This document shows positions 6,277-51,914 of a stretch of DNA of 64,000 bases, in pieces. The stretch covers positions 2,001,962-2,065,961 of the forward strand of contig OZ241842.1 of assembly GCA_965202675.1 (NCBI GenBank), given 5' to 3'. A program made the position numbers and the translations under genes. This DNA comes from Candidatus Spongiisociaceae bacterium (GTDB lineage Bacteria; Actinomycetota; Acidimicrobiia; Spongiisociales; Spongiisociaceae). The notes beneath the pieces were generated by a model that saw nothing but the letters and a program-made list of their open reading frames with translations, searched no databases and had not been told where the DNA came from. Within the stretch, counting starts at the first letter, position 1. Each line of letters begins with the position of its first letter.

Positions 6277-6280
6277 CGCC

Positions 6281-8341
6281 GTGGTGACGCCGTCCGCCGC
6301 CGCTCCTTTGGTCCTGGCCGCCGGGGAGGAAGGCGCCCTCCAGCTGTCGGAGGGGGGGTTCTTCGCCGCCGGCGCCTGGATCCTGCTGGTGCTTCCCTTC
6401 GCCGCCTTCATCGGCATCGTGCTGGCCGGCAAGCGCCTCCCGAAGCAGGGAGCCGAGCTGGCGGTGGGGGCGATGGCGGTCAACCTGCTGTGGTCCTCGG
6501 TGCTGTTCGTCCAGAACATGCTGGAGGGCATCCACCGGGAGGGGGCCTTCACCATCGCCCGCATCGGGCAACTGGGCGGCGCCGACCTGACCTTCGAGCT
6601 GGGCTTCGTGGCGGACGGGCTGTCGATCATGATGTACTGGTTGGTGTCCTTCGTGGGCTTCCTGGTGTTCGTATACGCGGTGGGCTACATGGAGGGGGAC
6701 GTGCGGGTGCCGTGGTTCTTCGCTTCCCTGTCCCTGTTCGCCGGGTCGATGCTGGTGCTGGTGGGGGCGCCCAACCTGATCCAGCTGATAATCGGCTGGG
6801 AGGGGGTGGGCCTGGCCAGCTACCTGCTGATCGGCCACTACTGGGAGCAGAAAGAGAACAGCGACGCCGCCGTCAAGGCCTTCCTGACCAACAAGGTGGC
6901 CGACGTGGGCCTGATCCTGGGCGCCATCCTGCTGGGGGTGTCGCTGGGCGGGTTCCGGTTCTCCGATCTGGCCAGGGCGGCGGTCGAGCACAGCGAGGCG
7001 CTGGGGGCGGTTGCGCTGGCCGGGGGGCTGCTGCTGTTCTTCGGGGCGATGGGCAAGTCGGCCCAGTTCCCCCTGCACGTGTGGCTGCCGGACGCCATGG
7101 CCGGCCCCACCCCCGTCTCGGCCCTGATGCACGCCGCCACCATGGTCACCGCCGGCGTCTACCTGATGGCGCGCACCTTCCCCCTCTACCAGAACATGGC
7201 CGCCGGCGCCCGCCAGTGGATGATCCCCGTCGCGGTCATCACCCTGTTCGTGCTGGGGTTCCTGGCGCTGACCTCCGACGACCTCAAGCGGGTGCTGGCC
7301 TACTCGACCGTCTCCCAGCTGGGCTACATGATGGCGGCGGCGGCGGCGGGCGGTTACACGGCGGGGCTGTTCCACCTGTTCACCCACGCCTTCTTCAAGG
7401 CCCTGCTGTTCCTCGGCGCCGGGTCGGTCATCCACGCCGTCCATTCCAACAACATGAGCGACATGGGGGGCCTGCGGCGCAAGATGCCGGTTACCTTCTG
7501 GACGTTTGTGGTCGGCTCGCTGGCGCTGGCCGGGGTGATCCCGTTGGCCGGCTTCTGGTCGAAGGACGAGATCCTGGCCACCCTCAGCCACGAGGGCTAT
7601 ACGGCCTTCATGTGGGCGGCGGTGGCCGGGGCGTTCGTCACCGCCTTCTACATGACCCGGGCGGTGGCGCTGACCTTCTTCGGAACCTACAAGGGTCACG
7701 GCCATCCCCGCGAGTCGCCCCCGGTGATGACGGCGCCCCTGGTGGTGCTGGCGGTCCCCAGCGCGCTGGCCGGTTTGTTGAACATTCCGGGCGTGAAGTG
7801 GGGCCCCGTCGGCAACTTCACCGAATGGGTGGGGGCGCGGGCGGTGGCGATGGGGGATTACCACCCGTCGAGCATCGAGTGGGATCTGGCCGCCTACGGG
7901 CTGGCTGCGGCGGCGGCCGGCATCGTCCTGGGCTGGTTGATCTTCTCGCCGGAGGCCGAGACGCAGGCCGCCCGCGACCGCTTGGAGATCCCGGTGCTGT
8001 ATCCGCTCCTGCGCCGCAAGTACTACATCGACGACCTGTACATGCGCGGGGTGGTCGGGCCTATCAAGGGACCCCTGGCCCGGGGGGTGGACTGGGTGAA
8101 CGGCCATGTGATCGACGCGGCGGTCAACGGGGCGGGGTTCTTGACCGCCTGGCTGGGCGGCCTGGTCTACGGACGCCTCGACCAGCAGGGCATCGACCTG
8201 ATGTTCAACGCGGCGGCGGGCGGCGTCGGAGGGGCGGGCGGACGGCTCCGGTTCCTGCAGAGCGGCAGGGTGCAGCAGTATGCGGGCGGGTTCGTGCTGG
8301 GGGTGCTGGTGCTGGCCGCCGTGTTCGCGGTCGTCACCTAG
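6281..8341 (+). CDS. nuoL: NADH-quinone oxidoreductase subunit L
   Basis: This 686-aa antiporter-like subunit carries GWEGVGLASYLLIGHYW, which is the ND5 signature. Confidence 0.9.
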   Translation: MVTPSAAAPLVLAAGEEGALQLSEGGFFAAGAWILLVLPFAAFIGIVLAGKRLPKQGAELAVGAMAVNLLWSSVLFVQNMLEGIHREGAFTIARIGQLGGADLTFELGFVADGLSIMMYWLVSFVGFLVFVYAVGYMEGDVRVPWFFASLSLFAGSMLVLVGAPNLIQLIIGWEGVGLASYLLIGHYWEQKENSDAAVKAFLTNKVADVGLILGAILLGVSLGGFRFSDLARAAVEHSEALGAVALAGGLLLFFGAMGKSAQFPLHVWLPDAMAGPTPVSALMHAATMVTAGVYLMARTFPLYQNMAAGARQWMIPVAVITLFVLGFLALTSDDLKRVLAYSTVSQLGYMMAAAAAGGYTAGLFHLFTHAFFKALLFLGAGSVIHAVHSNNMSDMGGLRRKMPVTFWTFVVGSLALAGVIPLAGFWSKDEILATLSHEGYTAFMWAAVAGAFVTAFYMTRAVALTFFGTYKGHGHPRESPPVMTAPLVVLAVPSALAGLLNIPGVKWGPVGNFTEWVGARAVAMGDYHPSSIEWDLAAYGLAAAAAGIVLGWLIFSPEAETQAARDRLEIPVLYPLLRRKYYIDDLYMRGVVGPIKGPLARGVDWVNGHVIDAAVNGAGFLTAWLGGLVYGRLDQQGIDLMFNAAAGGVGGAGGRLRFLQSGRVQQYAGGFVLGVLVLAAVFAVVT

Positions 8342-8369
8342 GTAACGCAAGGCTGGAAACAGGAGACAG

Positions 8370-9959
8370 ATGATGGAGTTCTTCGACAGCGGATGGGGGC
8401 TGAGCCTCATCGTGTTCCTGCCGGCGGTCGGAGCGGCGGCCCTGTTCGCCGTTCCGAAAGCCAACGAGGCGGCCCAGAAGTGGACCGCCCTGGCGGTAAC
8501 CGCCGCCGTTGCCCTGCTGGCCGCGGCCGCGGCCGCCGCCTTCGACTACGGAGCGGCCGAGCGGTTCCAGTTCGAGGTGACGGCCAGCTGGATACCGGCC
8601 ATCGGCGCCAACTACCACATCGGGGTGGACGGCATCAGCCTCCCCCTGCTGGTGCTGTCGGCGGCGGTAACCCTCCTGGCGGTGGTCTACTCGTGGGATC
8701 ACTGGGACGAGCCCCGCAACGTCAGGGGGTTCCTGGCGCTGATACTGCTCCTGGCAACCGGCATGAACGGGACGTTCGTTGCGCTCGACCTGGTGCTGTT
8801 CTTCATCTTCTTCGAGCTGGTGCTCCTCCCGATGTACTTCATGATCGGCATCTGGGGCGACGGCGCCCGCCGGCGCATCCCGGTGCTGGGCCGGACCGTG
8901 ACCATGCGGCTCTACGCGGCCATCAAGTTCTTCCTGTTCACCCTGTTCGGTTCGGCCTTCATGCTGCTGGGCTTCCTGGCCCTCTACTTCCGGTCGGGCG
9001 ACTTCCTGGGCGCCAACACCTTCGACATCCCGGCCCTGGTTTCCCTGGGCGCCGAGAACGCCTTCGGGAGCGGGACCTTCGCCTTCCTGGTGTTCGGGGC
9101 CATGTTCCTGGGGTTCGCGGTGAAGGTTCCCATGTGGCCGTTCCATACCTGGCTGCCGGACGCCCACACCGCCGCCCCCACGGTGGGTTCGGTGCTGCTG
9201 GCCGCCATCCTGCTGAAGCTGGGTTCCTACGCCTTCCTCCGTATTTCCATCCCCATCCTTCCCGACATGGCCAGGCAGTGGGCGCCGTTCATCGGCCTGT
9301 TGGCGGTGATCGGGATCATCTACGGCTCGCTGGCCTGCCTGGCGCAGACCGACGTGAAGCGGCTCATCGCCTTCTCGTCGGTGGGGCACATGGGTTTCGT
9401 GATGCTGGGGATCGCCACCATGACCGACGTGGGCTTCAACGCTTCCCTGATCGGGATGGTGGCCCACGGGCTGATCACCGGGCTGCTGTTCTTCCTGGCC
9501 GGGTCGATGCATCACCGCTACCACACCCGCGAGATCGCCCGCCTGGGGGGCAACCAGAAGCTGATGCCCTGGATGGGCGGCATATTCGCCTTCACCGCCA
9601 TGGCGTCGCTGGGCCTGCCCGGACTGGCCGGGTTCTGGGGCGAGTTCATGTCGCTGGTGGGGGCCTACCGTCCGCTGGCCGGCCTCAGCCTCACCCAGTT
9701 CCAGACCTACATGGTGATCGGAGCCGTCGGCACGGTCCTGACGGCCGGGTACATGCTGTGGATGCTGCAGCGGGTCAACCTGGGCGAACCCAAGGAGGAA
9801 TGGGCCGGGCGCGAGTTCGCCGATGTGGGGCGTTATGAATGGCTGGCCTGGGCGCCGCTGATCATTGCCATTGTGGCCATCGGCGTGTATCCGAGGATCG
9901 TGCTGGGGGCCACCACCGATGCGGTCGTCAACCTGGCGCGCACCGCCTTCGGAGGCTGA
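8370..9959 (+). CDS. nuoM: NADH-quinone oxidoreductase subunit M
   Basis: This 529-aa ND4-like antiporter subunit carries MWPFHTWLPDAHTAAPT. Confidence 0.9.
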   Translation: MMEFFDSGWGLSLIVFLPAVGAAALFAVPKANEAAQKWTALAVTAAVALLAAAAAAAFDYGAAERFQFEVTASWIPAIGANYHIGVDGISLPLLVLSAAVTLLAVVYSWDHWDEPRNVRGFLALILLLATGMNGTFVALDLVLFFIFFELVLLPMYFMIGIWGDGARRRIPVLGRTVTMRLYAAIKFFLFTLFGSAFMLLGFLALYFRSGDFLGANTFDIPALVSLGAENAFGSGTFAFLVFGAMFLGFAVKVPMWPFHTWLPDAHTAAPTVGSVLLAAILLKLGSYAFLRISIPILPDMARQWAPFIGLLAVIGIIYGSLACLAQTDVKRLIAFSSVGHMGFVMLGIATMTDVGFNASLIGMVAHGLITGLLFFLAGSMHHRYHTREIARLGGNQKLMPWMGGIFAFTAMASLGLPGLAGFWGEFMSLVGAYRPLAGLSLTQFQTYMVIGAVGTVLTAGYMLWMLQRVNLGEPKEEWAGREFADVGRYEWLAWAPLIIAIVAIGVYPRIVLGATTDAVVNLARTAFGG

Positions 9960-9962
9960 TCC

Positions 9963-11465
9963 GTGGACCTCGATTACCACGCCCTGGCGCCCGAGATCGT
10001 CGTAGCCGCCGCCATCCTGGCGGTGCTGGGCCTGGACGTGGCCCTGCCCCGCCGGCGCAAGTACTGGACGGCCTTCGCCGGGGTGCTGGGATTGGCCCTG
10101 GCGGCGGTTCCGCTGGCCACCCTGGCGTTCGGCGGCGGACCGGGGGCGAGGTCGATGCTGGGGGGGGCCTACGTGGTGGACGACTTCGCCTTGGTGCTCA
10201 AGGCGGTGTTCATCGTCGGCGGCTACCTGGTGCTGCTGATGTCCGTCTCCTACATCGAGAGCGACCGCTACTACCAGGGCGAGTACTACCTGCTGTTGCT
10301 GACCTCGATCCTGGGTTCGCTGATCATGGCCTCCTCCCGGGATCTGATCACGGTGTTCGTGGGCCTGGAGCTGGTCACCGGGCCGTTGTTCCTGCTGGCG
10401 GGCTGGCGCAAGGGGGACGCCCGCTCCAACGAGGCTTCGCTCAAGTTCTTCATCCTGGGGGTGCTCTCCACCGCCGTTCTTCTGTACGGGATGTCGTTCC
10501 TGTACGGGCTGACCGGTTCGGTCACCTTCGAGGGCATCCGCACCGCTGGGGCCGGGTTGTTGGACAGCGGCGCCTTCCGCATGGCCGTGCTGTTCACCCT
10601 GGTGGGGTTCGGTTTCAAGATCACGGCGGTGCCCTTCCATTTCTGGGCGCCCGACACCTACGAGGGGGCGCCCACCCCCGTAACCGCCTACCTGTCGGTG
10701 GGGTCGAAGGCGGCCGGCTTCGCGGGGCTGCTGCTGCTCTGCTACCAGGCGTTCCCGTCGGTGACCGAGATCTGGGGGCCGGTGCTGTGGGTGATGGCGG
10801 TCCTGTCGATGACCCTCGGAAACCTCACCGCCCTTCGCCAGGACAACATCGTGCGCATGTTGGCCTACTCCTCGATCGCCCAGGGCGGCTTCATCCTGGC
10901 GCCCTTCGCGGCGGCGGCGGCGACCAACGATCCGCGGGTGATCCAGGAGGCGGCGTCGGCCACCATCGTGTACGTGATCATCTACGCCTTCATGAACCTG
11001 GGGGCCTTCGCGGTGGTGATCGAAGGCGTCCGCCGCACCGGGACGGCCATGATCGACGCCTGGGCGGGGATGTGGCGCTACGCCCCCCGGGTGGCGGTGC
11101 TGGGGGCGGTCTTCTTCTTCTCCCTGGCGGGGATTCCCCCGCTGGCCGGATGGTACGCCAAGTTCGCCATGTTCCTGGCCGTCCTGCGCCCCGTCAACCC
11201 CTGGACCGTTGCGCTGGCGGCGGCGGCGGCGGTCAACGCGGTCATCGCCCTCGTCTACTACGCCCGGGTAGCCAAGACCATGTGGATGGACCCCCTGCCC
11301 GAGGGCGCCCCCTCGGACAGCGAAGCCCGCACCCGCCCGATGGGCGGCGCCATGGCCCTGGCCCTGGGGATAACCGCGGTCTTCGTGATCGCGGCGGGGG
11401 TGCTGCCCTTCCAGCTGGCCGCCGTCTTCGCCGAAGCCGCCAAGGTGGTAACCGCCGGCATCTGA
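9963..11465 (+). CDS. nuoN: NADH-quinone oxidoreductase subunit N
   Basis: This 500-aa ND2-like subunit is the last gene of the operon and carries FHFWAPDTYEGAPTPVTAY. Confidence 0.9.
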   Translation: MDLDYHALAPEIVVAAAILAVLGLDVALPRRRKYWTAFAGVLGLALAAVPLATLAFGGGPGARSMLGGAYVVDDFALVLKAVFIVGGYLVLLMSVSYIESDRYYQGEYYLLLLTSILGSLIMASSRDLITVFVGLELVTGPLFLLAGWRKGDARSNEASLKFFILGVLSTAVLLYGMSFLYGLTGSVTFEGIRTAGAGLLDSGAFRMAVLFTLVGFGFKITAVPFHFWAPDTYEGAPTPVTAYLSVGSKAAGFAGLLLLCYQAFPSVTEIWGPVLWVMAVLSMTLGNLTALRQDNIVRMLAYSSIAQGGFILAPFAAAAATNDPRVIQEAASATIVYVIIYAFMNLGAFAVVIEGVRRTGTAMIDAWAGMWRYAPRVAVLGAVFFFSLAGIPPLAGWYAKFAMFLAVLRPVNPWTVALAAAAAVNAVIALVYYARVAKTMWMDPLPEGAPSDSEARTRPMGGAMALALGITAVFVIAAGVLPFQLAAVFAEAAKVVTAGI

Positions 11466-11529
11466 CCCCGGCAGACCCCTGGAGCTTGTTCGAGCCGGCG
11501 CGCACTGGGCCGCCGGTAAGAGGCACAAG

Positions 11530-11575
11530 GGTATTGAAACTTTCCTTAATATTCGATACCTTAGAGTAGATAATG
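11530..11575 (+). promoter_or_regulatory. AT-rich promoter-like region (TTGAAA ... TAGATAAT) upstream of the orphan large gene
   Basis: The sequence reads ggtattgaaactttccttaatattcgataccttagagtagataatgg. It is the only strongly AT-rich stretch in a 70% GC context and contains -35-like and -10-like hexamers. Confidence 0.35.
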
Positions 11576-11796
11576 GTAGATACATTGATTCTGCGCCAAG
11601 AGAGGCCGCCTCCCGGCACCGTGCTCTTGGTCCACTACGGCGCAGGCGCCCGGTCCCTGGACCAACTTGTCAAGAACAGCCTCACGCAGTACCGCGCCTA
11701 TGGTCCTGTGCTGGAGGCACTGGGCAGGGACGCCGTCGATGGCCGGACAAAGACGAGTGGGCCCGCCGGTGTTCCGAGGAGGGTCCGTGGCGAGAG

Positions 11797-14700
11797 GTGC
11801 GGGTGCTCGACGCCGATAACCTCGAAGGCTGGCTCGAATCGAACTATGTCGTCCATGTTCGGGTATCCGAGCAGCTCGGCCGCCGCCCTTTGGAAGCGGA
11901 GTCGTTGGACAGGTGGTGGCCTCGGTGGGCGGACCAGACGGATCCGGTTTTGCCGCCGGCCCTGCTGTTGGCCGGCCGTCGGGCCGAGGCGGAGAAACTT
12001 TGCGCCGCGTTGACCGGGCCCCCGAAGGTCACAGGGGTTCGGGCCGCCTCGCGAGAAGAGGCCTTAGCTTTCGGGGCCGTTGCCCTGAGCACGGTCAAGG
12101 ACGACGTTTCTGCTTCGCCGGCGGCAGTGGTCGTCAAGTCTCTTGCGGTGTGGGATCGGTGTGCGGCGAGTCCCGGCCCGGCCATTCTGATCCCCCCGCG
12201 GGTCGAGGGCATCGACCTGCCGGCCGCGGTCCGGCAGGGTCATCCGGTTCTGATTCCTATGGGAGCAGGTGATGTCGACGGGGGAGGCGAAACGATCCTG
12301 CTTCCCCGGATCGGTCGGTCGGAGGCGCGGGAAGCACTGGAGGCGGCCGGAGCGTCTTCGGACAAGGCGGACGGATACGCGGTCGCGGCCCGCCGGAGCC
12401 TGCTGTCCCTGCGCCGAAGGATTTCCCTGCATCCCGCGACGGCCAGACCTGTGTGGGCGCAAGGCGGGGAAGCCGAGCTGTTGGCGGCCCTCGTATTGGT
12501 CGGGGCGTGGGAACAGAACAACGACTATGACCGCGCCGCAGTGGAGCGGATCGCTGATTGCGGCATCGAGGCGGTGGAGCGCCGGCTGCAGCGCTGGGAG
12601 AACACCGATGATCCTCCCTTCCGACGTTCGGGCGGCGCTTGGCGGTTGTCGTCTCCGGAGGATGCATGGCCGCTCCTTCGCAGCATGATTACCCGGGATT
12701 GCCTGAGGCGGTGGCGCGAGGCAGCGCTCGGAGTGCTGGGCGCTTCCGGTTCGGCGATCGAGCCGCCCGGGGGCCGTTTCTTCGCCCCCTTCCCAGGGGC
12801 GGCGCGGAAATGGTCTGCCGATCTGCGGAGAGGGTTGGCGCAGGGGGCGGTTTTCCTGGCGGCCTTCGATTTGCCGCGGCCCTTGGACGGTCTCAGAGGT
12901 TCCGAACACGCCGAGCGGATGGTGATGGAACTGTTGGATCAGGCAGGCGCCGACTCCGCCGGCGTGTTATGGAGGTCCTTGGCCGATGTACTGCCCTTGC
13001 TGGCAGAGGCGGCGCCGGACATCTTCCTCCGAGCTGTACATCGAGACGCGGCGGGCGGCGCCCCTTTGTTGGCCGGAATGTTCACCGACGCCTGCGGGTT
13101 CACAGGGTCCCCGCATACCGGCCTGCTCTGGGCTTTGGAGGCCTTGTGCTGGTCGGATAGATACCTGCCCTCTGCCCTGGACGCCCTGTTGCGGTTGGCC
13201 GAAATCGATCCGGGAGGCCGGACGGCCAACCGACCCCTGGACAGCGCGCGCCGGGTGCTCCTGCCTTGGCTGCACCAGACAAGCGCCTCGATCGAGCGCC
13301 GTATGGACGTGCTCGACGGTGTTGTGGAGCGTCATGAAAAAAAGGGATGGGAGCTGTTGCTGAGCCTGGTTGCTCTGCGGGGCAGTCATACGCACAATAT
13401 CAACAGACCGCGATTCAGAGATTGGATGACCGAGACGACGGGAATCTCCGGAGAAGAATCACGGCGGGCGGCAGAAGCGATTACTATCCGAGCGCTCAAA
13501 AAGGCTGGCGCCAATCCCTATCTTTGGGCGCAGCTGATCGAACACATACCCCTTCTCTGGGTTGGGCAGAGAGAACAGGTCATCGATGCTCTCGAAAGCT
13601 CAGGCATAGAGGCGCTCGACCATGGTGATCGCTTCGTCATTTGGAAGTCCCTGAACAAGTTGGTCGGGAACCGTCCGGATCGGAAGGCTCTACAGGATAG
13701 ATTGTCTGCCGCCGGCCTTGAGCGTTTGGAGAATATAAGGACCAAAATACGCCCCGATACGCCAGAAGTTCTGATCCAAGAGCATCACGAGTTGTTCGAT
13801 TGGCATCCAGAACGTTCGGATAGAGAGCGTCAGGATGCCGTCACAAGCATCTATCGATCAGCGGGAGTCGGGGGGCTGAGAGACCTGTCGAAGGAAGCTG
13901 TTCGTCCGGAATTGATCGGTGCATCGTCAGCTGACGCCATTATTGATCTGAGGGCAGAAGAGATGCTTCCCCTGTTGAACCAGGAAGGGCCGGATCGCGC
14001 GTTCGTTATGGGATGGATTACTCGAAGGGCAGAGCTCGACGGGGCGGAATGGATAGAAAGAACTGCGGATTCATTGGCAGATTTGTCTCATTCTGGCCAG
14101 GCTCTCTTCTTTCTTTCCTTGAGTCCTGATACTACTGTATGGAAAATCTTGGACCAGATGCCGCCCTCTGTCCAAGATCAATATTGGGAACGGGTCCATT
14201 CTTTTTATATACCACGGAGCGATTTCCTGATGTACTTGGATAAGCTCTTGGAGCACAGGCAACCTTGGTCTGCTGTAGAGTTCCTGTTTAGTCAACTAAG
14301 CAAGGATAAGAAGGAGGGCGGCAGCCTGGTTACAAGCGAGATGGTAGAGCGAACTATACTCAAACTGATAGAATCTGATACGAAGGAGCACCCCAGCGAG
14401 ATGTCTGCCTTTTGTCTGGGTAATTTGCTGGACTATTTGGATAAGCACGAGCCCGACTCGAGCAACCTGGCTGATTTCGAGTTAGCTCTATTTTCGGTAC
14501 TGCGCCGGTCCGACCGCCCGCCGACCGCGATATACCGGCGGCTCCAAGCAGAGCCGGCCGAATTCGTCAAACTGGTCTGCGGCGTCCATCGACTGCCTGA
14601 CGAAGAACCGGAAAATGATTCATTCGAAAGTACTGCTCCGCTTGATAATGCCTGGTCCATTCTGAAGGAATGGCGGACTTTGCCGGGCACCGACCGCGAT

Positions 14701-15126
14701 ACAGGCGATATCGAGCACGAGCGGCTGCGGGCGTGGGTGTTGGAGGCGCGCCGGCTGTTGCGGGAACGGGGCCGGAGCAGCATCGGAGACCAGTACATAG
14801 GAGAGCTCCTGTCCGGCGCCCCATCGGGAAGAGATGGGATATGGCCGGCCGAGCCGGTGAGGGATCTGCTGGAAGAGCTTGCGAGCGAAGGCGTGGAGCA
14901 GGGTGTTCTGGTCGGCCGCTTGAACAGCAGGGGGGTTACCGTCCGTGATCCGTTCGAGGGCGGCGCCCAAGAAAGGGACTCGGCCGGCCGGTACAGCGAT
15001 TGGGCGCAGCAGGTCGAGGCCAAGCGGCCGAGCACCGGCCGGGTGCTGCGGCAGTTGGCCGACTCCTATGAACGGGAAGCCCGCCGGCATGACGAAGAGG
15101 CCGAAGCCCTATCCGACCAGGATTGA
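11797..15126 (+). CDS. Large (1109 aa) hypothetical alpha-helical protein in a partly low-GC insert; no domain recognised
   Basis: The long ORF has sensible codon usage. GC drops to about 55% over roughly 13.3-14.7 kb. The frame stays open upstream of the GTG at 11797. ATG 11573 opens a second frame (146 aa) that overlaps it, so a frameshifted N-terminus is possible. Confidence 0.55.
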   Translation: MRVLDADNLEGWLESNYVVHVRVSEQLGRRPLEAESLDRWWPRWADQTDPVLPPALLLAGRRAEAEKLCAALTGPPKVTGVRAASREEALAFGAVALSTVKDDVSASPAAVVVKSLAVWDRCAASPGPAILIPPRVEGIDLPAAVRQGHPVLIPMGAGDVDGGGETILLPRIGRSEAREALEAAGASSDKADGYAVAARRSLLSLRRRISLHPATARPVWAQGGEAELLAALVLVGAWEQNNDYDRAAVERIADCGIEAVERRLQRWENTDDPPFRRSGGAWRLSSPEDAWPLLRSMITRDCLRRWREAALGVLGASGSAIEPPGGRFFAPFPGAARKWSADLRRGLAQGAVFLAAFDLPRPLDGLRGSEHAERMVMELLDQAGADSAGVLWRSLADVLPLLAEAAPDIFLRAVHRDAAGGAPLLAGMFTDACGFTGSPHTGLLWALEALCWSDRYLPSALDALLRLAEIDPGGRTANRPLDSARRVLLPWLHQTSASIERRMDVLDGVVERHEKKGWELLLSLVALRGSHTHNINRPRFRDWMTETTGISGEESRRAAEAITIRALKKAGANPYLWAQLIEHIPLLWVGQREQVIDALESSGIEALDHGDRFVIWKSLNKLVGNRPDRKALQDRLSAAGLERLENIRTKIRPDTPEVLIQEHHELFDWHPERSDRERQDAVTSIYRSAGVGGLRDLSKEAVRPELIGASSADAIIDLRAEEMLPLLNQEGPDRAFVMGWITRRAELDGAEWIERTADSLADLSHSGQALFFLSLSPDTTVWKILDQMPPSVQDQYWERVHSFYIPRSDFLMYLDKLLEHRQPWSAVEFLFSQLSKDKKEGGSLVTSEMVERTILKLIESDTKEHPSEMSAFCLGNLLDYLDKHEPDSSNLADFELALFSVLRRSDRPPTAIYRRLQAEPAEFVKLVCGVHRLPDEEPENDSFESTAPLDNAWSILKEWRTLPGTDRDTGDIEHERLRAWVLEARRLLRERGRSSIGDQYIGELLSGAPSGRDGIWPAEPVRDLLEELASEGVEQGVLVGRLNSRGVTVRDPFEGGAQERDSAGRYSDWAQQVEAKRPSTGRVLRQLADSYEREARRHDEEAEALSDQD

Positions 15127-15160
15127 GCCGAGCTCTTGCGGTCGATGAGCGCGCCGGGGG

Positions 15161-16228
15161 TTATCCGGCTATGAAGGACTCCACGGCTTGGCGGGCCTCT
15201 TCGTCGCGCATCTGGCGCGGGGGAGACTTCATGAAGTAGGCGCTCGGCTCGTACAGCGGGCCTGCCAGCCCCCGGTCCAGGCCCAGCTTGGCGCAGCGGA
15301 GGGCGTCGATCACCACCCCGGCCGAGTTGGGGCTGTCCCAGACTTCCAGCTTTACCTCGGCGCTCATGGGGGTGTTGCCGAAACCGGTTCCCTCCAGGCG
15401 GATATGCGCCCACTTGCGGTCGGTCAGCCAGGGAACGTGGTCCGAGGGCCCCACGTGGATGTCCTCCACCGGCATATGGGTTTCCAGCTGGCTGGTCACG
15501 GCCGTGGTCTTGGACTCCTTCTTCGACTCCAGGCGGCTGCGTTCCAGCATGTTCAGGAAGTCGGTGTTGCCGCCGAAGTTGAGCTGGTAGGTGCGGTCCA
15601 CCTCGACGCCTCGGTCCTGGAAGAGGTTCACCAGGCTGCGATGCAGGATGGTGGCGCCCACCTGCGATTTGATGTCGTCGCCCACGATGGGCAACCCCGC
15701 CGCCCGGAACCGCTCGGCCCATTTCTCGTTGCGGGCGATGAACACGGGAATGCAGTTTACGAAAGCGCACCCGGCTTCCAGCGCCTGCTCCGCGTAGTAC
15801 TCGGTGGCCTGCTGCGACCCGACCGGCAGGTAGGAGATCACCACGTCCACCCCGGCCTTTCGCAGCTCCTCGGCTACGTCGACCTCCTCCTCCAGGGACT
15901 CCTCCACCAGGTCGGCCACATAGGAACCGATCCCGTCCAGGGTGGGGCCCCGCTTCACGGTGACGTCCAAATGGGGGACCTCGGCGAACTCGATGGTGTT
16001 GTTTTCGCCGGACTTGAGGGCCTTGGAGAGGTCTTGGCCCACCTTGGCTGCGTCTACGTCGAAGGCCGCCGCGAACTCGATGTCCCCGATGTGGTAGCCG
16101 CCCAGCTCGGGATGCATCAGTCCGGGGATGGTCTGGCCGGGATCGGCGTCCCGGTAGAACTCCACTCCCTGCACCAGGGCGGAGGCGCAGTTCCCCGCCC
16201 CCACAATCGCCGCCCTTATCTTGCTCAC
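15161..16228 (-). CDS. ino1: myo-inositol-1-phosphate synthase (inositol-3-phosphate synthase)
   Basis: The protein is near-collinear with actinobacterial Ino1, for example [17 protein letters not shown]...NNTIEF...GPTLDGIG...SYLPVGS...IKSQVGATI...[22 protein letters not shown]...[17 protein letters not shown]. It starts at GTG with a GGAGGAGG RBS. Confidence 0.9.
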
Positions 16229-16382
16229 GATTTCTTCCTCCTCGAATAGAGACCCGCCCAGTTTGCCCGCTTTCGTTAGTTAGGTCTAATAAATAGTTCT
16301 ATACTATAGAGAAGGTATTGCTTATGAATTCAGGGCGCGGTGCGGGCATGGAGACAGGGCGGTAGAGATCAGGAAGGTAAAT

Positions 16383-17321
16383 ATGGAACGAGAAATGGAA
16401 ACGGAGATCCCCCTCATCAACTTCAGGAGCCTGCGCTGCCTGCAGGAAGTGGAGCGGAGCGGCTCGTTCACCGACGCGGCCTATGCGCTGCGGATCAGCC
16501 AGCCCGCTCTCTCCCAGTCCCTGGCCGAGCTGTCCAATCGGCTGGGCGCCCCCCTGTTCCGCAAGGAAGGGCGCCGCCGGGTGCTCACCGAGGGCGGCCG
16601 CCGGACCGTCCGCTACGCCGACCGGGTGATCGGCCAGACCGCCGACCTGCTCCGGTGGCTGGAGAGGTGGGAGAGGGGGGAGGCGGGGCTGCTTCGGGTG
16701 GGGATGATCGACACCGCCTGCCTCTACACCGTTCCCGCCGGGCTTTCCCGCCTGCGCGAGGAGCATTCCGAGATCGAACTCCGGTTGGTGGTCGACGACT
16801 CCGCCGCATTGCTGGCGATGCTGGATGAATATCGGCTGGACCTGGCTTTCACGGTGGGGCCGGCGGGGGAGGGCCGCGGCTCGGCGCCGATAGCCGCCGA
16901 GCCCATGTACATCTACTCGCCGCCCCATTTCCCGCCCCTGGAAGCCGGGGGCGCCGGCGCCGGGGAGGCCGCTCCCGAAGGCTGGGCGCTCTTCCCCTCC
17001 CGATCCCGCACCCGCCGGCTGGTCGACCAGGGCCTGGTCGGGATGGGCATCCAACCCCGGGCGGCCCTGGAGTCCGCCAACCCCACCGTGCTGCGCCAGA
17101 TGGCGGTGTTGGGCTACGCCCGGACGGTGCTCCCCAAACAGGTGGCGGAATCCGGCGCCGCCGCCGTCCTCCTGGAAGAAGGTCCGCTGGTGGCCGAGCG
17201 CTCCATCGAAGGGGTCTGGCGCTCGGGCGAAGCCCTCGACCCGCGCGCCCGGAAACTCATCCGCCTAGTCCAAGGGGCGCAGGAGGGCGAAACGCACCGG
17301 CCCGTACAGCCGGCCGGGTAG
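16383..17321 (+). CDS. LysR-family transcriptional regulator
   Basis: An N-terminal HTH (FTDAAYALRISQPALSQSLAELSNRLGAPLF) is followed by a LysR substrate-binding region. An AGGAAGG RBS is present. The gene is divergent from ino1. Confidence 0.85.
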   Translation: MEREMETEIPLINFRSLRCLQEVERSGSFTDAAYALRISQPALSQSLAELSNRLGAPLFRKEGRRRVLTEGGRRTVRYADRVIGQTADLLRWLERWERGEAGLLRVGMIDTACLYTVPAGLSRLREEHSEIELRLVVDDSAALLAMLDEYRLDLAFTVGPAGEGRGSAPIAAEPMYIYSPPHFPPLEAGGAGAGEAAPEGWALFPSRSRTRRLVDQGLVGMGIQPRAALESANPTVLRQMAVLGYARTVLPKQVAESGAAAVLLEEGPLVAERSIEGVWRSGEALDPRARKLIRLVQGAQEGETHRPVQPAG

Positions 17322-17399
17322 TTGTGCATCTGCTCGATCTGGGGGGCCGGGGGAGCCGCCGCTCCGCGAAGGCCGGCGTTGCGCTACGATACGGGCCGA

Positions 17400-17471
17400 G
17401 GGCGCTTAGCTCAGCGGGAGAGCGCTGCCTTCACACGGCAGAGGTCACTGGTTCGATCCCAGTAGCGCCCA
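17400..17471 (+). tRNA. tRNA-Val (anticodon CAC)
   Basis: GGGCGCU-UA-GCUC-AGCGGGA-GAGC-G-CUGCC-UUCACAC-GGCAG-AGGUC-ACUGG-UUCGAUC-CCAGU-AGCGCCC-A folds as a 72-nt cloverleaf with a GTTCGATCC T-loop. CCA is not encoded. Confidence 0.85.
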
Positions 17472-17533
17472 CCGCCGCCGCTGTTGGCAAGCGGTGCAGG
17501 TCAGGGGGAGTTCTTTGATCCCCTGCGGCAGAT

Positions 17534-18472
17534 CTATACGCCTTCGGCGGGCTCGATTCCCTTCTCTCCGAACCGGCGGGCGGCCCACCGGTCGAAAGCA
17601 ATCAGCCCCGCCGCGCTTGCCGCCGCCAGGAGGAACGGCGCTACCGCATCAGGGCCGGGTGCGCCCAGGACGGCGGCGCCCTCCCCGTTCTCACCGCCCA
17701 GGCCGTTCGGCCACGGCCACAGGATGCGGAACGAGCCCGCCATCAGACCGATCATCACCGCCAGCAGAGGGTCATGCCGGCGGACCAGCAGCCGATGCAG
17801 TATCCGGGCGAAGCCGCCGAGGCCCAGCGCCATCCCGGCCGCCAGCGCCGCCAACGCCGCCGGCTCCGGTCCGGCCGCCGCCCTTATCACCGGCTGGTAC
17901 ATGCCCGCCGCCAGCAACACGAACGACCCGCTCACCCCCGGCAGGATCAAGGCGCACACCCCGGCCGCCCCGGCCAGGAAGAACGCCCACCCGGACGGGT
18001 CGGACACCGATTCCGACCGGAAACCGAACCCCCAGAAGGCGGCCGCCCCCACCGAGGCGGATATCGCCAGGTGCGCGAAGGCCGGACGGCGGAGCATCCG
18101 CACGGCGGCCGCCACCGCCCCGGCCATCAATCCGGCGAACACCGCCGCGGTGCGCACCGGATGCTCGGCCAGCAGGTATTCGATCACCCCCGCCAGGCCC
18201 AGCACCGCCGGAACCGCCCCCGCCGCCAGGGCGGCCGCGAACCAACGGTCGATCGACCGCAGCCGCTGCCCCGCTCTCCGCGCATCCCCCCGCACCAGGG
18301 CGGCCGCCGCCTCCGCCGCCAGCGCCGCCGCCCCCAGCAGGCGGGGGTAGATGCGGGTGACCAGCGCCACCGTACCCCCGCTGACCCCCGGCACCAGGTC
18401 GGCCGCCCCCACCGCCGCTCCCCGCAACCACAGCAGCGCCAGCTCTCCGAAAGAGGGGCGGGTGCGCGTCAT
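17534..18472 (-). CDS. DUF368-family membrane protein (putative polyprenyl-phosphate transporter, PopT-like)
   Basis: It is a polytopic membrane protein with two PGVSGG/PGVSGS motifs, which are characteristic of DUF368. Confidence 0.7.
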   Translation of the reverse strand: MTRTRPSFGELALLWLRGAAVGAADLVPGVSGGTVALVTRIYPRLLGAAALAAEAAAALVRGDARRAGQRLRSIDRWFAAALAAGAVPAVLGLAGVIEYLLAEHPVRTAAVFAGLMAGAVAAAVRMLRRPAFAHLAISASVGAAAFWGFGFRSESVSDPSGWAFFLAGAAGVCALILPGVSGSFVLLAAGMYQPVIRAAAGPEPAALAALAAGMALGLGGFARILHRLLVRRHDPLLAVMIGLMAGSFRILWPWPNGLGGENGEGAAVLGAPGPDAVAPFLLAAASAAGLIAFDRWAARRFGEKGIEPAEGV

Positions 18473-18687
18473 CTGACGATCATAAACAGCGAACAGCCCG
18501 GCGGGTTGTCCGAAGCCCCCTATCTATAGTTCTGCCCGAGGAGACAAACGGCGCTTTGCCGACCAAACACCGGCGGAGGGGCGTTCTGCGCATGAAAGAT
18601 AGGTTCCGACGGAACAACGAGGAAAGCGGCGCAGGATATTTTCTCGGAATCCGCTCATGCTAGAGTTGGAGTCTTGGAGGAATTGTA

Positions 18688-19425
18688 ATGAGGAAGATCG
18701 TCATCTTTTTGGCGGCGGTGCTGGCGCTGTCGGCGTCTGCGTGCAGCAGAGGAGAACCGACCGATACGGCCTCCACCAACTCCGTTTTCGATGACATCCT
18801 GTCGACCTCCGAGCGCTCCCAGCCGGTTACCACCCCCCCCGCCGACACGATTCCTCCTACTGTCCCCACCACGGAACCCGAAAGCCCTACCACCACCCCT
18901 CCCACCCTGCCCGCCGTAGAAACAGAGGTCGAAGACGCAGAAACAGTCTCGCAGCCGGCGGCGCTGACCTCCGCTTCCATAGTCACGCTGCGCGCCCTGG
19001 GGCCGGTGCGGATCGGCATGTCGGTGGCGGAGGCGTCCGAGGCGGCGGGGCTGGAACTCCGCCGGGACCTGGGCAGGTCCTCGACCGACAGCTGCTACCA
19101 CGTGAACGCCGGCCCCACCATGCGGGGGGTGTCCTTCATGGTGGTCAACGACCTGATCAGGCGCATCAACATCGATCCGCCCAGCCCGGTCGCCACCAGG
19201 TCGGGGGTGGGGATAGGCACCACGGCGAGCAACCTGCGGGAGGTCTACTCCGACAACATCCAGCGGGCCGACAGCGCGGCGGCGGGCGGCCAGGGCTGGG
19301 CGTTCGTGCCCAACGACGAATTCGACGACGACTTCCGCATCTACTTCGAGATCGAGGCCGGGTCCGTGGCCCGTTACCGCCTGGGGTCCAGACCGTCGGT
19401 GGACTCCCCCGGCGGCTGCCAATAA
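18688..19425 (+). CDS. Secreted/lipoprotein of unknown function with Pro/Thr-rich linker
   Basis: The signal peptide ends in a lipobox-like LSASAC. A PTT-rich low-complexity linker is followed by a globular C-terminal domain. An RBS is present. Confidence 0.6.
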   Translation: MRKIVIFLAAVLALSASACSRGEPTDTASTNSVFDDILSTSERSQPVTTPPADTIPPTVPTTEPESPTTTPPTLPAVETEVEDAETVSQPAALTSASIVTLRALGPVRIGMSVAEASEAAGLELRRDLGRSSTDSCYHVNAGPTMRGVSFMVVNDLIRRINIDPPSPVATRSGVGIGTTASNLREVYSDNIQRADSAAAGGQGWAFVPNDEFDDDFRIYFEIEAGSVARYRLGSRPSVDSPGGCQ

Positions 19426-48301: not shown

Positions 48302-50379
48302 CCGGCGCGGCGGAGCGGTCGGTGCAGGTGGTGTTCACCCCCTCGGGAAGGCGGGGGCGGGTGAGGGCCGGAACCGCCGTCCTGGACGCGGCCCGCAGCC
48401 TGGGGGTGGACATCGACTCGGTGTGCGGAGGCCGGGGAATATGCGGGCGCTGCCAGATAATGCTGGGCGCGGCGGCGGGAGCGCCCTCCGCCGACGGCGC
48501 CCTTTCACCCCCCGGCCAGACGGAGATGGGCTATCGGAGCCGGCGCCGCCCCCTGCGGGAAGGCCACCGGCTCTCATGCGCCGCCCGGCTGCAGGGCGAC
48601 GCGGTTATCGACGTTCCCCCCTACAGCGCCGTGCACCGCCAAGTGGTGCGAAAACGGCCTGAGGCGGTGGACATTCCCGTGGATCCGGTGGTGCGCCTGC
48701 ACTACGTGGAGGTGGAACCCCCCGACATGCACAAGCAGGCCTCCGATCTGGCCCGGGTGCTCCAGGCGCTGGAAGGGCAGTGGGGGATCTCCGCAGAGGA
48801 GGTGGACCATCACGTGCTGGTCGGTCTGCAGGACGCCCTGCGGGAAGGCGGATGGAAGATAACGCTGGCGGTCCACGACGGGTCGGCGGTGACCGGGGTG
48901 TGGCCGGGCTTCTACGACGGTTCGGTCGGGGTGGCCATAGATGTGGGGTCGACCACCGTGGCCGGGCATCTCTGCGACCTTTCCACGGGTGAGGTGCTGG
49001 CCTCCACCGGGATGATGAACCCCCAGATCCGGTTCGGCGAGGACCTGATGAGCCGGGTTTCCTACGCGATGATGAACGAGGGGGGCGCGGAGGAGCTGAC
49101 CGGCGCGATACGGGAAGCCCTGGACCGGCTGGTGGGAGAGCTGGCGGAAGCGGCCGGGTCGGAGCGCGGCGCGGTGCTGGAGATCGCCTTGGTCGGGAAC
49201 CCCGTCATGCACCATCTGGTGCTGGGGATCGATCCGCGCCGTCTGGGGGTGGCGCCCTTCGCGTTGGCCACCGACGGGGCGGTCCGCATGGAGGCGTCGT
49301 CCGTAGGAATCGAGGCCCACCCCGGCGCCCGCCTCTACGTGCTTCCCTGCGTGGCGGGTCATGTGGGCGCCGACGCGGCCGGCGCCATGCTGTCGGAAGG
49401 CCCCCACCGCGGCCGGGACATCCAGCTGCTGGTGGACGTGGGCACCAACGCCGAGATTGTGTTGGGCAGCGCCGGGCGCCTGCTGGCCGCTTCCAGCCCC
49501 ACCGGTCCGGCCTTCGAAGGGGCCGAGATCGGTTCCGGGCAACGGGCCGCCCCCGGAGCGATCGAGCGGGTGCGCATCGACCGCCGCACCCTGGAACCCC
49601 GCTTCAGGGTGATCGGGGTGGATATGTGGTCGGACGAGGAGGGCTTCGAGGAGGCGGCCGCCGGTGCGGGGGTGACCGGGATATGCGGCTCGGGGATCAT
49701 CGAGGCGGTGGCCGAGCTGGCCCTGTCGGGGGTGGTGTCGGCGGACGGTCTGATCCTGGACACCGGACGGAGCAGGCGGGTGGCCGCGGACGGCCGCACC
49801 GCCTCCTACCTGCTGTACGAGGGGGGCTTGTCCGGCGGCGGGGGCGCCCGGATCGTCATCAGCCAGAACGACGTGAGGGCGATCCAGCTGGCCAAGGCGG
49901 CGCTCTACGCGGGGGTGCGGCTGCTCATGGATCGGCTGGGGGCGGCGGCGGTAGACGAAATCAGGCTGGCCGGCGCCTTCGGCAGCCATATCGATCCCAT
50001 ATATGCAATGGTTCTGGGCATGATCCCCGACTGCGACCCGGACAGGGTGTCGGCGGCGGGCAACGCGGCCGGCGCCGGAGCGATGATGGCCTTGCTGAGC
50101 GGCGCCGCCCGCCGGGAGGTCGAGGAGCTGGTGCGGCGGGTGGAGAAGATCGAGACGGCGGTGGCGTCCGATTTCCAGCAACATTTCGTGGAGGCGATGG
50201 CCATTCCCCATGCCGCCGCCCGCTTCGAGCAGCTGTCCGGCCGGGTGGACCTGTCGGGCATCGCGGCGGGGGACCCGTCTGCCGCCCGCCGCGGCCGCCG
50301 GTCGGGCCGGGCCGGTTCCGGGCGGGGCGGCGCCGGGGGCCGCCGTCCGGCGGCGGCCGCCCGAGAGGCGGCGGTGTGA
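48298..50379 (+). CDS. RamA-like corrinoid reductive activase (N-terminal 2Fe-2S ferredoxin + ASKHA ATPase domain)
   Basis: The N-terminal cysteines CGGRGICGRCQ are followed by a large ASKHA domain (GIAIDVGSTTVAG...LVDVGTNAEIV). Confidence 0.8.
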   Translation: MTGAAERSVQVVFTPSGRRGRVRAGTAVLDAARSLGVDIDSVCGGRGICGRCQIMLGAAAGAPSADGALSPPGQTEMGYRSRRRPLREGHRLSCAARLQGDAVIDVPPYSAVHRQVVRKRPEAVDIPVDPVVRLHYVEVEPPDMHKQASDLARVLQALEGQWGISAEEVDHHVLVGLQDALREGGWKITLAVHDGSAVTGVWPGFYDGSVGVAIDVGSTTVAGHLCDLSTGEVLASTGMMNPQIRFGEDLMSRVSYAMMNEGGAEELTGAIREALDRLVGELAEAAGSERGAVLEIALVGNPVMHHLVLGIDPRRLGVAPFALATDGAVRMEASSVGIEAHPGARLYVLPCVAGHVGADAAGAMLSEGPHRGRDIQLLVDVGTNAEIVLGSAGRLLAASSPTGPAFEGAEIGSGQRAAPGAIERVRIDRRTLEPRFRVIGVDMWSDEEGFEEAAAGAGVTGICGSGIIEAVAELALSGVVSADGLILDTGRSRRVAADGRTASYLLYEGGLSGGGGARIVISQNDVRAIQLAKAALYAGVRLLMDRLGAAAVDEIRLAGAFGSHIDPIYAMVLGMIPDCDPDRVSAAGNAAGAGAMMALLSGAARREVEELVRRVEKIETAVASDFQQHFVEAMAIPHAAARFEQLSGRVDLSGIAAGDPSAARRGRRSGRAGSGRGGAGGRRPAAAAREAAV

Positions 50380-51914
50380 ACGCCCGGCGGGGCCGCAGAG
50401 CCGGCGGCCGGGCGGCGCGCCAGGCGCAGCGGACGGCCCGCGTGATCGAGCAGCAGCCCTTCCTGGTCCGCAGGATCAGCCCCGCAGAGGTGCTGTCGGA
50501 GGAGGGCGTCGAGATCATCGAGCACAACGCCGACACCCTGCTCGAGGAGGCGGGCGTCGAGATCATGGACTATCCGGAGGCGCTGTCCATCTACGCCGGG
50601 GCGGGCGCCGAGGTGGACGGAACCAGGGTTCGTTTTCCCAGGGGCATGTGCCGGGAGCTCATAACCGCTTCGGCGCCGGAGGTGTTCACCCACCACGCCC
50701 GCAACCCGGAACGGTCGGTGTCGATCGGAGACCCGTACACGGTTTTCGCCCCCGCCTACGGACCGCCCTTCGTGCGGGACCTGGAAGGGGGCCGCCGCTA
50801 CGCCACCCTCGGGGACTTCGAGAACTTCGCCAAGCTGACCCACATGTCCCCGGCGCTCCACCACGGCGGAGGGACCCTGTGCGAGCCGGTGGACCGCCCG
50901 GTCAACAAGCGCCACTACGACATGATCTACTCCCATGTCGTCTACCACGACAAGCCGTTCATGTCGTCCGTTACCCAGCCCGAACGAGCCCAGGACTCGG
51001 TGGATATGGCCAAGATCGTGTTCGGCGGGGACTTCGTGCAGAACAACACGGTCCTGATCGGCCTCTGCAACGCCAACTCCCCGATGACCTGGGACCTCGC
51101 CATGCTGGGATCGGCCAAGGTGCTGGCCGAGAACAACCAGTGCGCCCTGATAACCCCGTTCATCGTCGCCGGGGCCATGTCGCCGGTTACGGTGGCGGCT
51201 ACCGCAACCCAGACCCTGGCCGAGGCGATGGCGGGTATGGCCTTCACCCAGATCGTCCGGCCCGGCGCTCCGGTCATATTCGGCTCGTTCGCCGCTTCGA
51301 TGTCGATGCAGAGCGGCGCCCCCACCTTCGGAACCCCGGAGACGGCCTTGGTGCTGGGATCGGTCAAACAGCTGGCGGTGCGGCTGGGGGTGCCGTTCCG
51401 ATCGGGCGGCGCCCTGACCGCCTCCAAGATTCCAGACGCCCAGGCGGCCTATGAAAGCATTATGACCCTTCTGCCCGCGGTCGGGGCCGGCGTCAACTTC
51501 GTTCTGCACTCCGCCGGATGGCTCGAGGGCGGCCTCACGATGGGTTACGAGAAGTTCGTTCTCGACGCAGATCAGGCCTCAATGATGAACCGGCTGACGG
51601 GCGGGGTGGATCTGAGCGAGAACGGCCTGGCGTTGGAGGCCTTGCTGACCAACGGCCCCGGCGGGCATTTCCTGGGCGCCGAACACACCATGGAGAACTT
51701 CGAACAGGCATTCTGGGTGTCGGAGTTGGCCGATGCGGACAGCTTCGAGCAGTGGGAGATCGACGGCGCCCTTGATTCCATCGACCGGGCCAACCGGAAA
51801 TGGAAGCAGATGCTGGCCGAATACCAGCCGCCGCCGCTCGATCAAGCGGTGCACCAGGAGCTGACCGAGTGGATCGCCGCCCGCAAGGCCTCGTTCCCCG
51901 ACTCCGATTACTGA
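50376..51914 (+). CDS. Non-pyrrolysine MttB-superfamily methyltransferase (quaternary amine:corrinoid methyltransferase, MtgB/MtcB-like)
   Basis: This 512-aa TIM-barrel MttB-family protein has no in-frame TAG, so it belongs to the non-Pyl clade. It starts at GTG overlapping the ramA stop. Confidence 0.8.
   Translation: MNARRGRRAGGRAARQAQRTARVIEQQPFLVRRISPAEVLSEEGVEIIEHNADTLLEEAGVEIMDYPEALSIYAGAGAEVDGTRVRFPRGMCRELITASAPEVFTHHARNPERSVSIGDPYTVFAPAYGPPFVRDLEGGRRYATLGDFENFAKLTHMSPALHHGGGTLCEPVDRPVNKRHYDMIYSHVVYHDKPFMSSVTQPERAQDSVDMAKIVFGGDFVQNNTVLIGLCNANSPMTWDLAMLGSAKVLAENNQCALITPFIVAGAMSPVTVAATATQTLAEAMAGMAFTQIVRPGAPVIFGSFAASMSMQSGAPTFGTPETALVLGSVKQLAVRLGVPFRSGGALTASKIPDAQAAYESIMTLLPAVGAGVNFVLHSAGWLEGGLTMGYEKFVLDADQASMMNRLTGGVDLSENGLALEALLTNGPGGHFLGAEHTMENFEQAFWVSELADADSFEQWEIDGALDSIDRANRKWKQMLAEYQPPPLDQAVHQELTEWIAARKASFPDSDY

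Follow-up and report, generated by a model that had tools for sequence, protein, structure and literature searches.

Gene content of the nuoN-ino1 interval

The window analysed here is the whole 64,000-nucleotide stretch of contig OZ241842.1 from Candidatus Spongiisociaceae bacterium, and coordinates are positions in it unless another contig is named. Between nuoN and the convergent ino1 gene lies an open reading frame (ORF) of 1109 amino acids (aa), as an earlier interpretation made without database searches (the sequence-only reading) had described. We show that this ORF is part of the remnant of a cassette, composed of a promoter, a 174-aa partner gene and a 1323-aa large gene, that was cut by a single 937-bp deletion. 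The window copy is most likely a pseudogene of recent origin, derived from a candidate NLR-like defence gene whose intact relatives are predicted to combine a nuclease-like domain, an AAA+/STAND-fold domain and a long alpha-solenoid. The features of the locus are listed below; contigs and proteins used for comparison carry L and P numbers, respectively.

9963..11465, + strand: nuoN, last gene of the nuo operon and upstream context; its 500-aa counterparts in L001, L002 and L087 have PF00361 (Proton_antipo_M)
11534..11562, + strand: promoter-like element predicted from alignment; -35 TTGAAA at 11534-11539, 17-nt spacer, -10 TACCTT at 11557-11562
11573..12013, + strand: 146-aa chimeric ORF with an ATG start; 54 native codons of the partner gene, then out-of-frame read-through into the large gene
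11573..11734, + strand: partner-gene remnant, first 54 codons (MVDTLILRQERPPPG...EALGRDA; MVDTLILRQ...GRDA), identical to residues 1-54 of the 174-aa gene at L001:2266-2790
11734..11735, no strand: deletion junction with 2-nt CG microhomology (blastn against L001)
11734..15126, + strand: 3' remnant of the large gene, codons 194-1323 and the stop (tblastn of P0001 residues 194-1323 against window 11734-15123, 98.3% identity)
11797..15126, + strand: 1109-aa ORF with a GTG start, 3' of nuoN and convergent with ino1
11959..12500, + strand: AAA+/STAND-fold alpha/beta domain and helical lid (approximate bounds, from the model of the window protein)
12514..12690, + strand: winged-helix-like element (helices 243-268, beta-hairpin 275-284, helix 287-297; approximate bounds, assigned from model topology only)
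12700..15123, + strand: all-alpha solenoid body, a putative sensor; ~150 aa at its C-terminal end are strongly conserved
13250..14650, + strand: low-GC segment (0.47-0.58), coinciding with the fastest-evolving part of the solenoid (GC profile; substitution rates)
15161..16228, - strand: ino1 (myo-inositol-1-phosphate synthase), downstream context; PF01658 is found on the syntenic genes of L002 and L003

A deletion joins two genes out of frame

Alignment with blastn places window positions 9308-11735 on L001 1-2428 and positions 11734-15350 on L001 3366-6982, both at 99.1% identity, and the intervening L001 2429-3365 (937 bp) is missing from the window. In the intact L001, nuoN is followed by the 174-aa gene, then by the 1323-aa gene, whose start overlaps the stop of the small gene by 4 nt, and finally by the convergent ino1. 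The deletion has cost the small gene its codons 55-174 and the large one its codons 1-193. Because 937 is of the form 3n+1, the partner gene and the large gene were joined out of frame, and the deletion therefore explains why the locus had looked like a gene with either a frameshift or a leader. The sequence-only reading was correct that the long frame is open through the AT-rich stretch with its first start at 11797, that an ATG at 11573 opens an overlapping 146-aa frame, and that something is wrong at the N-terminus; the cause is neither a small indel nor a leader but a 937-bp deletion fusing two genes. Specifically, no stop codon interrupts the long frame from 11467 onward, and its earliest start codon is the GTG at 11797, the first one in frame that is left to the large-gene remnant, which mechanically yields the 1109-aa ORF. 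The deleted DNA was not found elsewhere in the window, where tblastn with P0001 matched only through residues 194-1323.

The same junction, GGGACGCCG joined to TCGATGGCC, is present in L087, a second public contig (ENA ERZ26167708 ctg183332_2x, from a 2x-coverage long-read assembly) that is 99.5% identical to window 1555-20317, which makes an assembly artefact private to the window unlikely. Relative to the window, L087 has 14 gap openings, by which ino1 and the remnant are split into several called genes and an apparently in-frame fusion protein of 233 aa (P0123) is created; these gaps are most likely long-read indel errors rather than additional mutations.

The deletion is very recent, judging from flanks that are 99.1% identical to the intact allele and from a remnant that is otherwise undamaged, with no stop codon or frameshift beyond the deletion itself. 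Between the remnant and L001 there are 33 differing sites, and omega (ratio of nonsynonymous to synonymous substitution rates) is 0.45, as it is between the intact copies L001 and L002. Polarised substitutions, nonsynonymous (N) to synonymous (S), amount to 6N:4S on the window branch and 8N:6S on the L001 branch, which are too few to detect relaxed selection. The 1109-aa ORF has no native start and is devoid of the N-terminal module and nearly all of the restriction-endonuclease-like domain, including four conserved residues (D136, E156, K166 and R174 of the intact protein) that fall in the deleted part. Since the effector is lost, the window copy is most likely non-functional, and what is seen at the locus itself is ordinary gene decay.

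A widespread family behind the truncated gene

The retained part of the gene belongs to a large protein family, and the earlier label of orphan does not hold. A word-indexed homologue search returned at least 398 homologues, and an exhaustive phmmer search against cluster representatives (50% identity clusters) returned 5,778 representatives at E<=1e-3, 2,716 of them at E<=1e-30. The retained part is 98% identical to its closest homologue, P0001, which has 1323 aa and is encoded on L001; the first 12 matches have E=0, and all 120 listed have E<=1e-185. Nearly all homologues are ~1250-1330 aa long. Homology of the window protein does not run end to end over the ~1240-aa core shared by the family, of which residues ~85-193 are deleted, making it a truncated family member. 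The whole core is also spanned by phrog_18693 (PHROGs v4, function not annotated), which matches residues 87-1317 of P0001 (E 1.6e-134) and residues 79-1319 of P0024 (E 6.9e-165), indicating from these profile matches that phrog_18693 and the intact relatives are the same protein family. Phage genomes gave one weak match in 50,697 records, and the family is far commoner on chromosomes and plasmids.

More than 260 GTDB species representatives have members, distributed over Actinomycetota, Chloroflexota, Bacteroidota, Bacillota, Pseudomonadota, Gemmatimonadota, Saccharibacteria and Cloacimonadota, in addition to one archaeal Methanothrix metagenome-assembled genome (MAG). In PLSDB, 24 plasmids carry a member (11 of them conjugative), in contexts that include a transposon (Tn) with TniB, a recombinase and ParAB. 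On the Rhizobium leguminosarum plasmid pPR4 (L085 4469-13683), the family gene lies between two genes of the same strand, one upstream for an 'RHE_PE00001 family protein' and one downstream for a hypothetical protein of 1281 aa, and this trio adjoins Mu-transposase/TniB genes and a recombinase; it may represent a larger multi-gene module in rhizobial plasmids.

Raw counts near the family gene include tyrosine integrases at 9 loci, HsdM at 6 and relaxases at 6. Among the 145 immediate neighbours of 76 loci, PADLOC detected type I/II/III methyltransferases, mad2, LmuB and PDC-M68A, and Pfam detected N6_Mtase, SLFN_AlbA_2, HEPN, resolvase and integrase. These raw counts suggest that the neighbourhoods are of a defence or mobile-element type. 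Of 84 loci, 5 have the large gene broken into two ORFs (L029, L061, L063 of Ktedonobacter racemifer DSM 44963, L074 and L082), which indicates that inactivation recurs in the family. In the Methanothrix copy (L032), a stop codon interrupts the frame close to the N-terminus.

The cassette, its promoter and its genomic position

The AT-rich stretch at 11530-11575 had been read as a promoter island, and it does contain a promoter-like element that is conserved with the cassette. In the alignment, AGGGTATTGAAA and a TAnnnT hexamer are kept in L001, L003 and L005, as well as in L004 (TTGAAA, 17 nt, TATAAT), and the -10 variants across the aligned cassettes (TACCTT, TATATT, TATAAT) lie ~10 nt before the aligned ATG, TTG or GTG start. 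As this pattern is kept even in the unrelated context of L004, the element travels with the cassette. In the window, 10 nt separate the end of the element from the ATG at 11573, from which spacing we infer that the cassette mRNA may be near-leaderless. A consensus promoter scan picked another, overlapping hexamer pair, and Rfam returned no RNA element for the AT-rich region in window 11300-15400.

L001 (98% identity), L002 (88%), L003 (58%) and L005 (60%), the last being the chromosome of an Acidimicrobiia MAG, all have nuoN, the small gene, the large gene and ino1 in this order. L004 (55% identity) has the gene pair in an unrelated context, between an upstream Fic gene and a downstream ABC transporter. 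A metagenome scan based on ino1 found the lysR neighbour shared in 2 of 80 loci (L088 and L089), neither of which has nuoN beside ino1. As for a housekeeping role, which the sequence-only reading had named as the outcome that would undo its own proposal, the gene is indeed syntenic in L001, L002, L003 and L005, but no housekeeping family matched, the cassette occurs elsewhere in L004 and family members on plasmids, and the GC anomaly is retained in relatives.

The 174-aa partner is restricted to the Acidimicrobiia-type clade L001-L006. In the more distant L006 (Acidimicrobiia MAG OZ246890.1), the partner gene is broken into two ORFs, 9470-9712 and 9737-9991, next to an intact large gene, which independently suggests that the partner is dispensable or decaying. 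A tRNA-Val(CAC) gene lies at window 17400-17473 (+), ~2.3 kb downstream of the cassette and past ino1 and a LysR-type regulator (16383-17321). tRNA genes are common integration sites; two host genes stand between this one and the cassette.

A low-GC segment within a fast-evolving gene

The GC content falls from ~0.68 to 0.47-0.58 across ~13.25-14.65 kb, close to the interval of 13.3-14.7 kb noted earlier; the dip amounts to ~0.16, and GC at third codon positions (GC3) falls too. It is not the low-GC insert that had been proposed. The dip is located within the gene and recurs at the corresponding codons of L001-L005, and thus in intact relatives down to 55-60% identity; it is weak in L006 and absent in the other ~70 family members examined. 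When the protein is split in three, the dip segment has the lowest identity against every homologue. Against L002, its identity is 82% and the flanking segments reach 91% and 95%; the nonsynonymous substitution rate (dN) is 0.092 in the dip segment (omega 0.53), compared to 0.045 and 0.025 in the flanks. Overall, the large gene has dN of 0.025-0.092 and omega of 0.33-0.53, in contrast to dN of 0.004-0.008 and omega of 0.04-0.12 in nuoM, nuoN and ino1, meaning that its dN exceeds that of the flanking genes 5- to 25-fold. The comparison across relatives shows the dip to be a clade-conserved trait of the variable middle of the solenoid, not an island boundary.

We also considered the low-GC segment as a chimera from a lower-GC donor and rejected it, since whichever homologue is compared, this is the most divergent of the three segments, and no donor lineage was detectable. 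A second local GC minimum (0.56-0.57) occurs at window 16100-16550, in the intergenic region between the divergent ino1 and LysR-family regulator genes, and is probably their shared promoter region.

Predicted architecture of the intact protein

The first ~80 residues form a variable module, which is a helix-turn-helix (HTH) of the HTH_17 type in most members, an XRE-type HTH in Gemmatimonadota and beta-rich in the Acidimicrobiia-type clade, and which is absent in many members. It is followed by an invariant predicted core: a restriction-endonuclease-like domain, an AAA+/STAND-fold domain and an alpha-solenoid. Database names for members are limited to 'helix-turn-helix transcriptional regulator', 'excisionase family DNA binding protein' and 'hypothetical'. 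The sequence-only reading had found no recognisable motif in the window protein, in agreement with our searches of the 1109-aa ORF, which returned no match in Pfam, NCBIfam or PADLOC and only noise in a PDB sequence search.

An AlphaFold2 model of P0001 residues 1-463 (predicted local distance difference test score, pLDDT, 82.7) covers the N-terminal part. The full-length relatives are predicted to have the alpha-beta-beta-beta-alpha-beta core fold of PD-(D/E)xK nucleases. Likenesses of this domain, at 9-14% sequence identity, include AF1548/Mrr-like proteins, the FokI cleavage domain, N.BspD6I/R.BspD6I and MspJI/AspBHI, with further matches to Can2, LlaBIII, MspJI, AspBHI and NucS. D136 (GWDG, start of beta2) is nearly invariant and E156 (WExG, beta3) is invariant, as are, in the next helix, K166 (nearly) and R174 (fully); in the model, these four residues would fit a variant nuclease active site.

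The model of the window protein has the fold of a P-loop NTPase domain of the AAA+/STAND type, followed by the winged-helix-like element and by a solenoid of ~800 residues, for which structural matches are only generic HEAT/ARM/exportin proteins. Specifically, a Foldseek search of the 1109-aa model against the PDB retrieved only generic solenoids, with template-modelling (TM) scores of at most 0.26. A repeat-type region suited to a sensor is thus predicted at the C-terminus, and a predicted effector stands at the N-terminus of the full-length relatives and is deleted from the window copy. In P0219 (L168 525-5021), a PNP_UDP_1 domain (residues 54-372) replaces the part corresponding to residues 1-235 of P0024, which comprise the HTH and the nuclease, in a single continuous ORF. 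Long forms with ~470-780 extra N-terminal residues also occur, namely P0138 (1741 aa) and P0196 (1591 aa), which have no Pfam match in that region, and P0180 (1910 aa), which has tetratricopeptide (TPR) repeats there.

Comparison with known defence systems

The closest likeness is to Avs and other bacterial NLR-like proteins (with nuclease effectors in Avs3/Avs4, and with Avs8 being PD-lambda-4), which share the order of effector, AAA+/STAND domain with winged helix, and helical repeats. Size (~1250-1330 aa), the single-gene format, the patchy spread over phyla and plasmids, and fast evolution are alike as well. The sequence-only reading's suggestion that a large helical protein could be defence-related is therefore borne out to the extent of an NLR/Avs-like architecture and of defence and mobile-element neighbours. 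The family differs from these systems in that its proteins have no detectable sequence similarity to the PADLOC models for Avs, bNACHT and PD-lambda-4, that most members carry an extra N-terminal HTH before the nuclease, and that the window copy is without an effector. N-terminal PNP domains have been described among the effectors of Avs proteins (bioRxiv 10.1101/2023.01.24.525353). A precedent for degenerate Walker motifs is KpAvs8, described as a defence-active Avs by Lee et al. (bioRxiv 10.64898/2026.01.04.697583), whose study comprises 589 STAND clades and 684 sensor clusters.

Upx resembles the family in being a large single-gene PD-(D/E)xK nuclease with a big sensor and a broad distribution (PMC13601566, PMC13099982). 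Identity with Upx was rejected because the domain order differs and no model matched. The PADLOC matches of the intact family protein P0024 are to mad1 and MTase_II only, through its 50-aa HTH. A further likeness, by description, is to DSR1/DSR2, in which an N-terminal effector is fused to a long HEAT-like alpha-helical sensor with neither ATP hydrolysis nor a STAND NTPase. The DSR effector is, however, SIR2 rather than a nuclease, and DSR has no AAA+-fold middle domain.

Proposed function and points against it

By analogy with these systems, the family can reasonably be considered a candidate new form of NLR-like defence in bacteria. In the proposed mechanism, the alpha-solenoid, which evolves fastest in its low-GC middle, would bind a ligand derived from an invader; the STAND-like domain, its NTPase motifs lost, and the winged helix would mediate a conformational change or oligomerisation; and the N-terminal PD-(D/E)xK-type nuclease (or PNP_UDP_1 in P0219) would then be activated and stop the invader or kill the cell. 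The variable first ~80 residues (HTH_17, XRE-type HTH, beta-rich or none) would probably serve DNA binding or autoregulation. That the intact protein works like an NLR/Avs-type sensor without nucleotide hydrolysis is inferred by analogy, and we would put it at even odds or slightly better. Taken as a whole, the explanation of the locus as a deletion-made pseudogene remnant of a family whose intact members are NLR/Avs-type sensors seems to us moderately probable. The stronger proposition is tentative and somewhat doubtful, namely that the family is a new widespread class of NLR-like sensors, with an ATP-independent pseudo-STAND switch, a diversifying solenoid and swappable effectors, of which the window would hold a natural effector-less allele produced by one microhomology-mediated deletion.

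Several observations weigh against this interpretation. The nuclease-like domain has no canonical ExK, its conserved lysine being located 10 residues past the glutamate, in the next helix. Walker A and Walker B are missing from the AAA+/STAND-fold domain: none of 196 family proteins has Walker A (GxxxxGK[ST]) there, the P-loop position reads VxAx[SW]RxEAxAF and the strand equivalent to Walker B reads LVVxSxxVWDR. As these motifs are absent, the family does not qualify as a STAND NTPase, and nucleotide-dependent switching appears unlikely from the residues at these positions. The effector swap that would liken the family to Avs is seen in the one example examined, P0219. In this lineage, the cassette has kept one chromosomal site while the protein diverged by ~40%, a degree of stability unusual in a defence gene; most neighbours of family genes are ordinary genes, and no partner is conserved family-wide. 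PADLOC-DB v2.0.0, which includes AVAST, bNACHT/NLR, Upx, dsr, PD-lambda-4 and MADS, matched neither the window ORF nor P0001, and searches of the literature and supplements for the family found nothing. Regarding the deletion, L087 and the window possibly come from one population or sample. Finally, the remnant has no excess of nonsynonymous change, and its pseudogene status rests on the lost domains and the lost start, not on decay.

Alternative explanations

A small frameshift near 11750-11800 in a gene starting at 11573, or a ~220-nt leader before a genuine 1109-aa gene, would account for the two overlapping frames across 11573-12013; we give it practically no credence because the 11573 frame begins with 54 residues that come from a distinct 174-aa gene, whose own stop overlaps the large-gene start in relatives, and because large-gene homology begins abruptly at codon 194, with 937 bp missing and not 1-2 bp. 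It is also very improbable that the deletion is an assembly or sequencing artefact in a genome that is really intact. The existence of an intact allele at 99% identity in another data set (L001), together with the 2x coverage and other obvious indel errors of the supporting contig L087, would favour such an artefact, but the exact junction is shared by two separately assembled records, it is clean with flanks colinear over 18.8 kb, and its end points have no repeat able to collapse an assembly, only the 2-nt microhomology. With the deletion accepted as real, the truncated gene might still be functional, producing a sensor-only protein of ~1107-1109 aa from GTG 11797 or 11803 that acts as a decoy, scaffold or regulator. 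The cassette promoter and the 3.3-kb frame are intact with no stop codon or frameshift, an AGGAGG is found at 11777-11782 and a GAGAGG directly before the GTG codons, omega is not elevated on the window branch, and the same allele in L087 indicates that it persists in a population. Nonetheless, we hold this to be improbable: the window branch has accumulated ~10 substitutions, and over so short a time since the deletion an intact frame is uninformative, an internal start would compete with the overlapping 146-aa ORF read from the native ATG, and the conserved putative catalytic residues are all gone. Moreover, the shorter homologues without the N-terminus among those listed look like truncated gene calls or contig ends and not like a conserved short form, as illustrated by P0049 (1129 aa), which is a 1333-aa ORF in L008.

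The remaining alternative concerns the family rather than the window copy, which would then be a decayed passenger. Under this explanation, the proteins are large HTH-type DNA-binding regulators, or factors for the maintenance or exclusion of mobile elements. An HTH_17/MerR-like domain does begin most members, members are located on conjugative plasmids beside ParAB, recombinases and transposition genes as well as near integrases and relaxases, and the NTPase motifs are absent from the family. Yet the HTH is dispensable, since many members have a beta-rich module or an XRE-type HTH in its place, or nothing at all, whereas the nuclease fold, AAA+ fold and solenoid are the invariant core; the regulator-type database names derive only from the ~50-aa HTH match. 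The PNP_UDP_1 swap and the high dN fit the logic of an effector plus a sensor better than that of a regulator. We therefore regard a regulatory or maintenance role as unlikely, although it is the main rival for the role of the family, and retain the NLR/Avs-type sensor as the preferred reading of the intact family.

Other observations in the window

Gene calls for the nuo operon (window ~1555-11465 through L087, 99.5% identical; L002 and L003) run nuoB, C and D and then directly H-N. No gene for NuoE/F/G was present between the 49-kDa subunit and NADHdh in the gene calls of L087, L002 and L003. Elsewhere, window 51414-51513 (+) matches Rfam PYLIS_3, the mttB pyrrolysine insertion sequence, with 51.5 bits against a gathering score of 38. 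The match lies inside an ORF at 49626..51914 that encodes an MttB-family methyltransferase (PF06253, E 1.7e-213) and whose frame is uninterrupted through it; this looks like a non-pyrrolysine MttB homologue resembling the PYLIS region.

Implications

The immediate consequence is for annotation: the 1109-aa ORF is to be treated as a 5'-truncated pseudogene and the 146-aa ORF as a deletion artefact. At the level of the family, proteins that had been labelled only as HTH regulator, excisionase or hypothetical are here predicted to have a nuclease, a Walker-less AAA+/STAND-like fold and a solenoid. Members are available from cultured sources, including plasmids of Arthrobacter sp. NicSoilB8 and of Shewanella baltica, as well as Paenibacillus polysaccharolyticus and Chryseobacterium. 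The Arthrobacter member is an HTH-type gene at 226825-230778 of plasmid NZ_AP024656.1, that of Shewanella baltica BA175 is WP_014615232.1, and the intact L001 cassette spans 2159-6758. Additionally, L001 and the window, which are 99% identical, present the gene in intact and in deleted form, a natural pair for asking what carrying it costs or brings. Should the family prove to be a defence system, the bacterial NLR-like sensors would gain a branch free of NTPase motifs.

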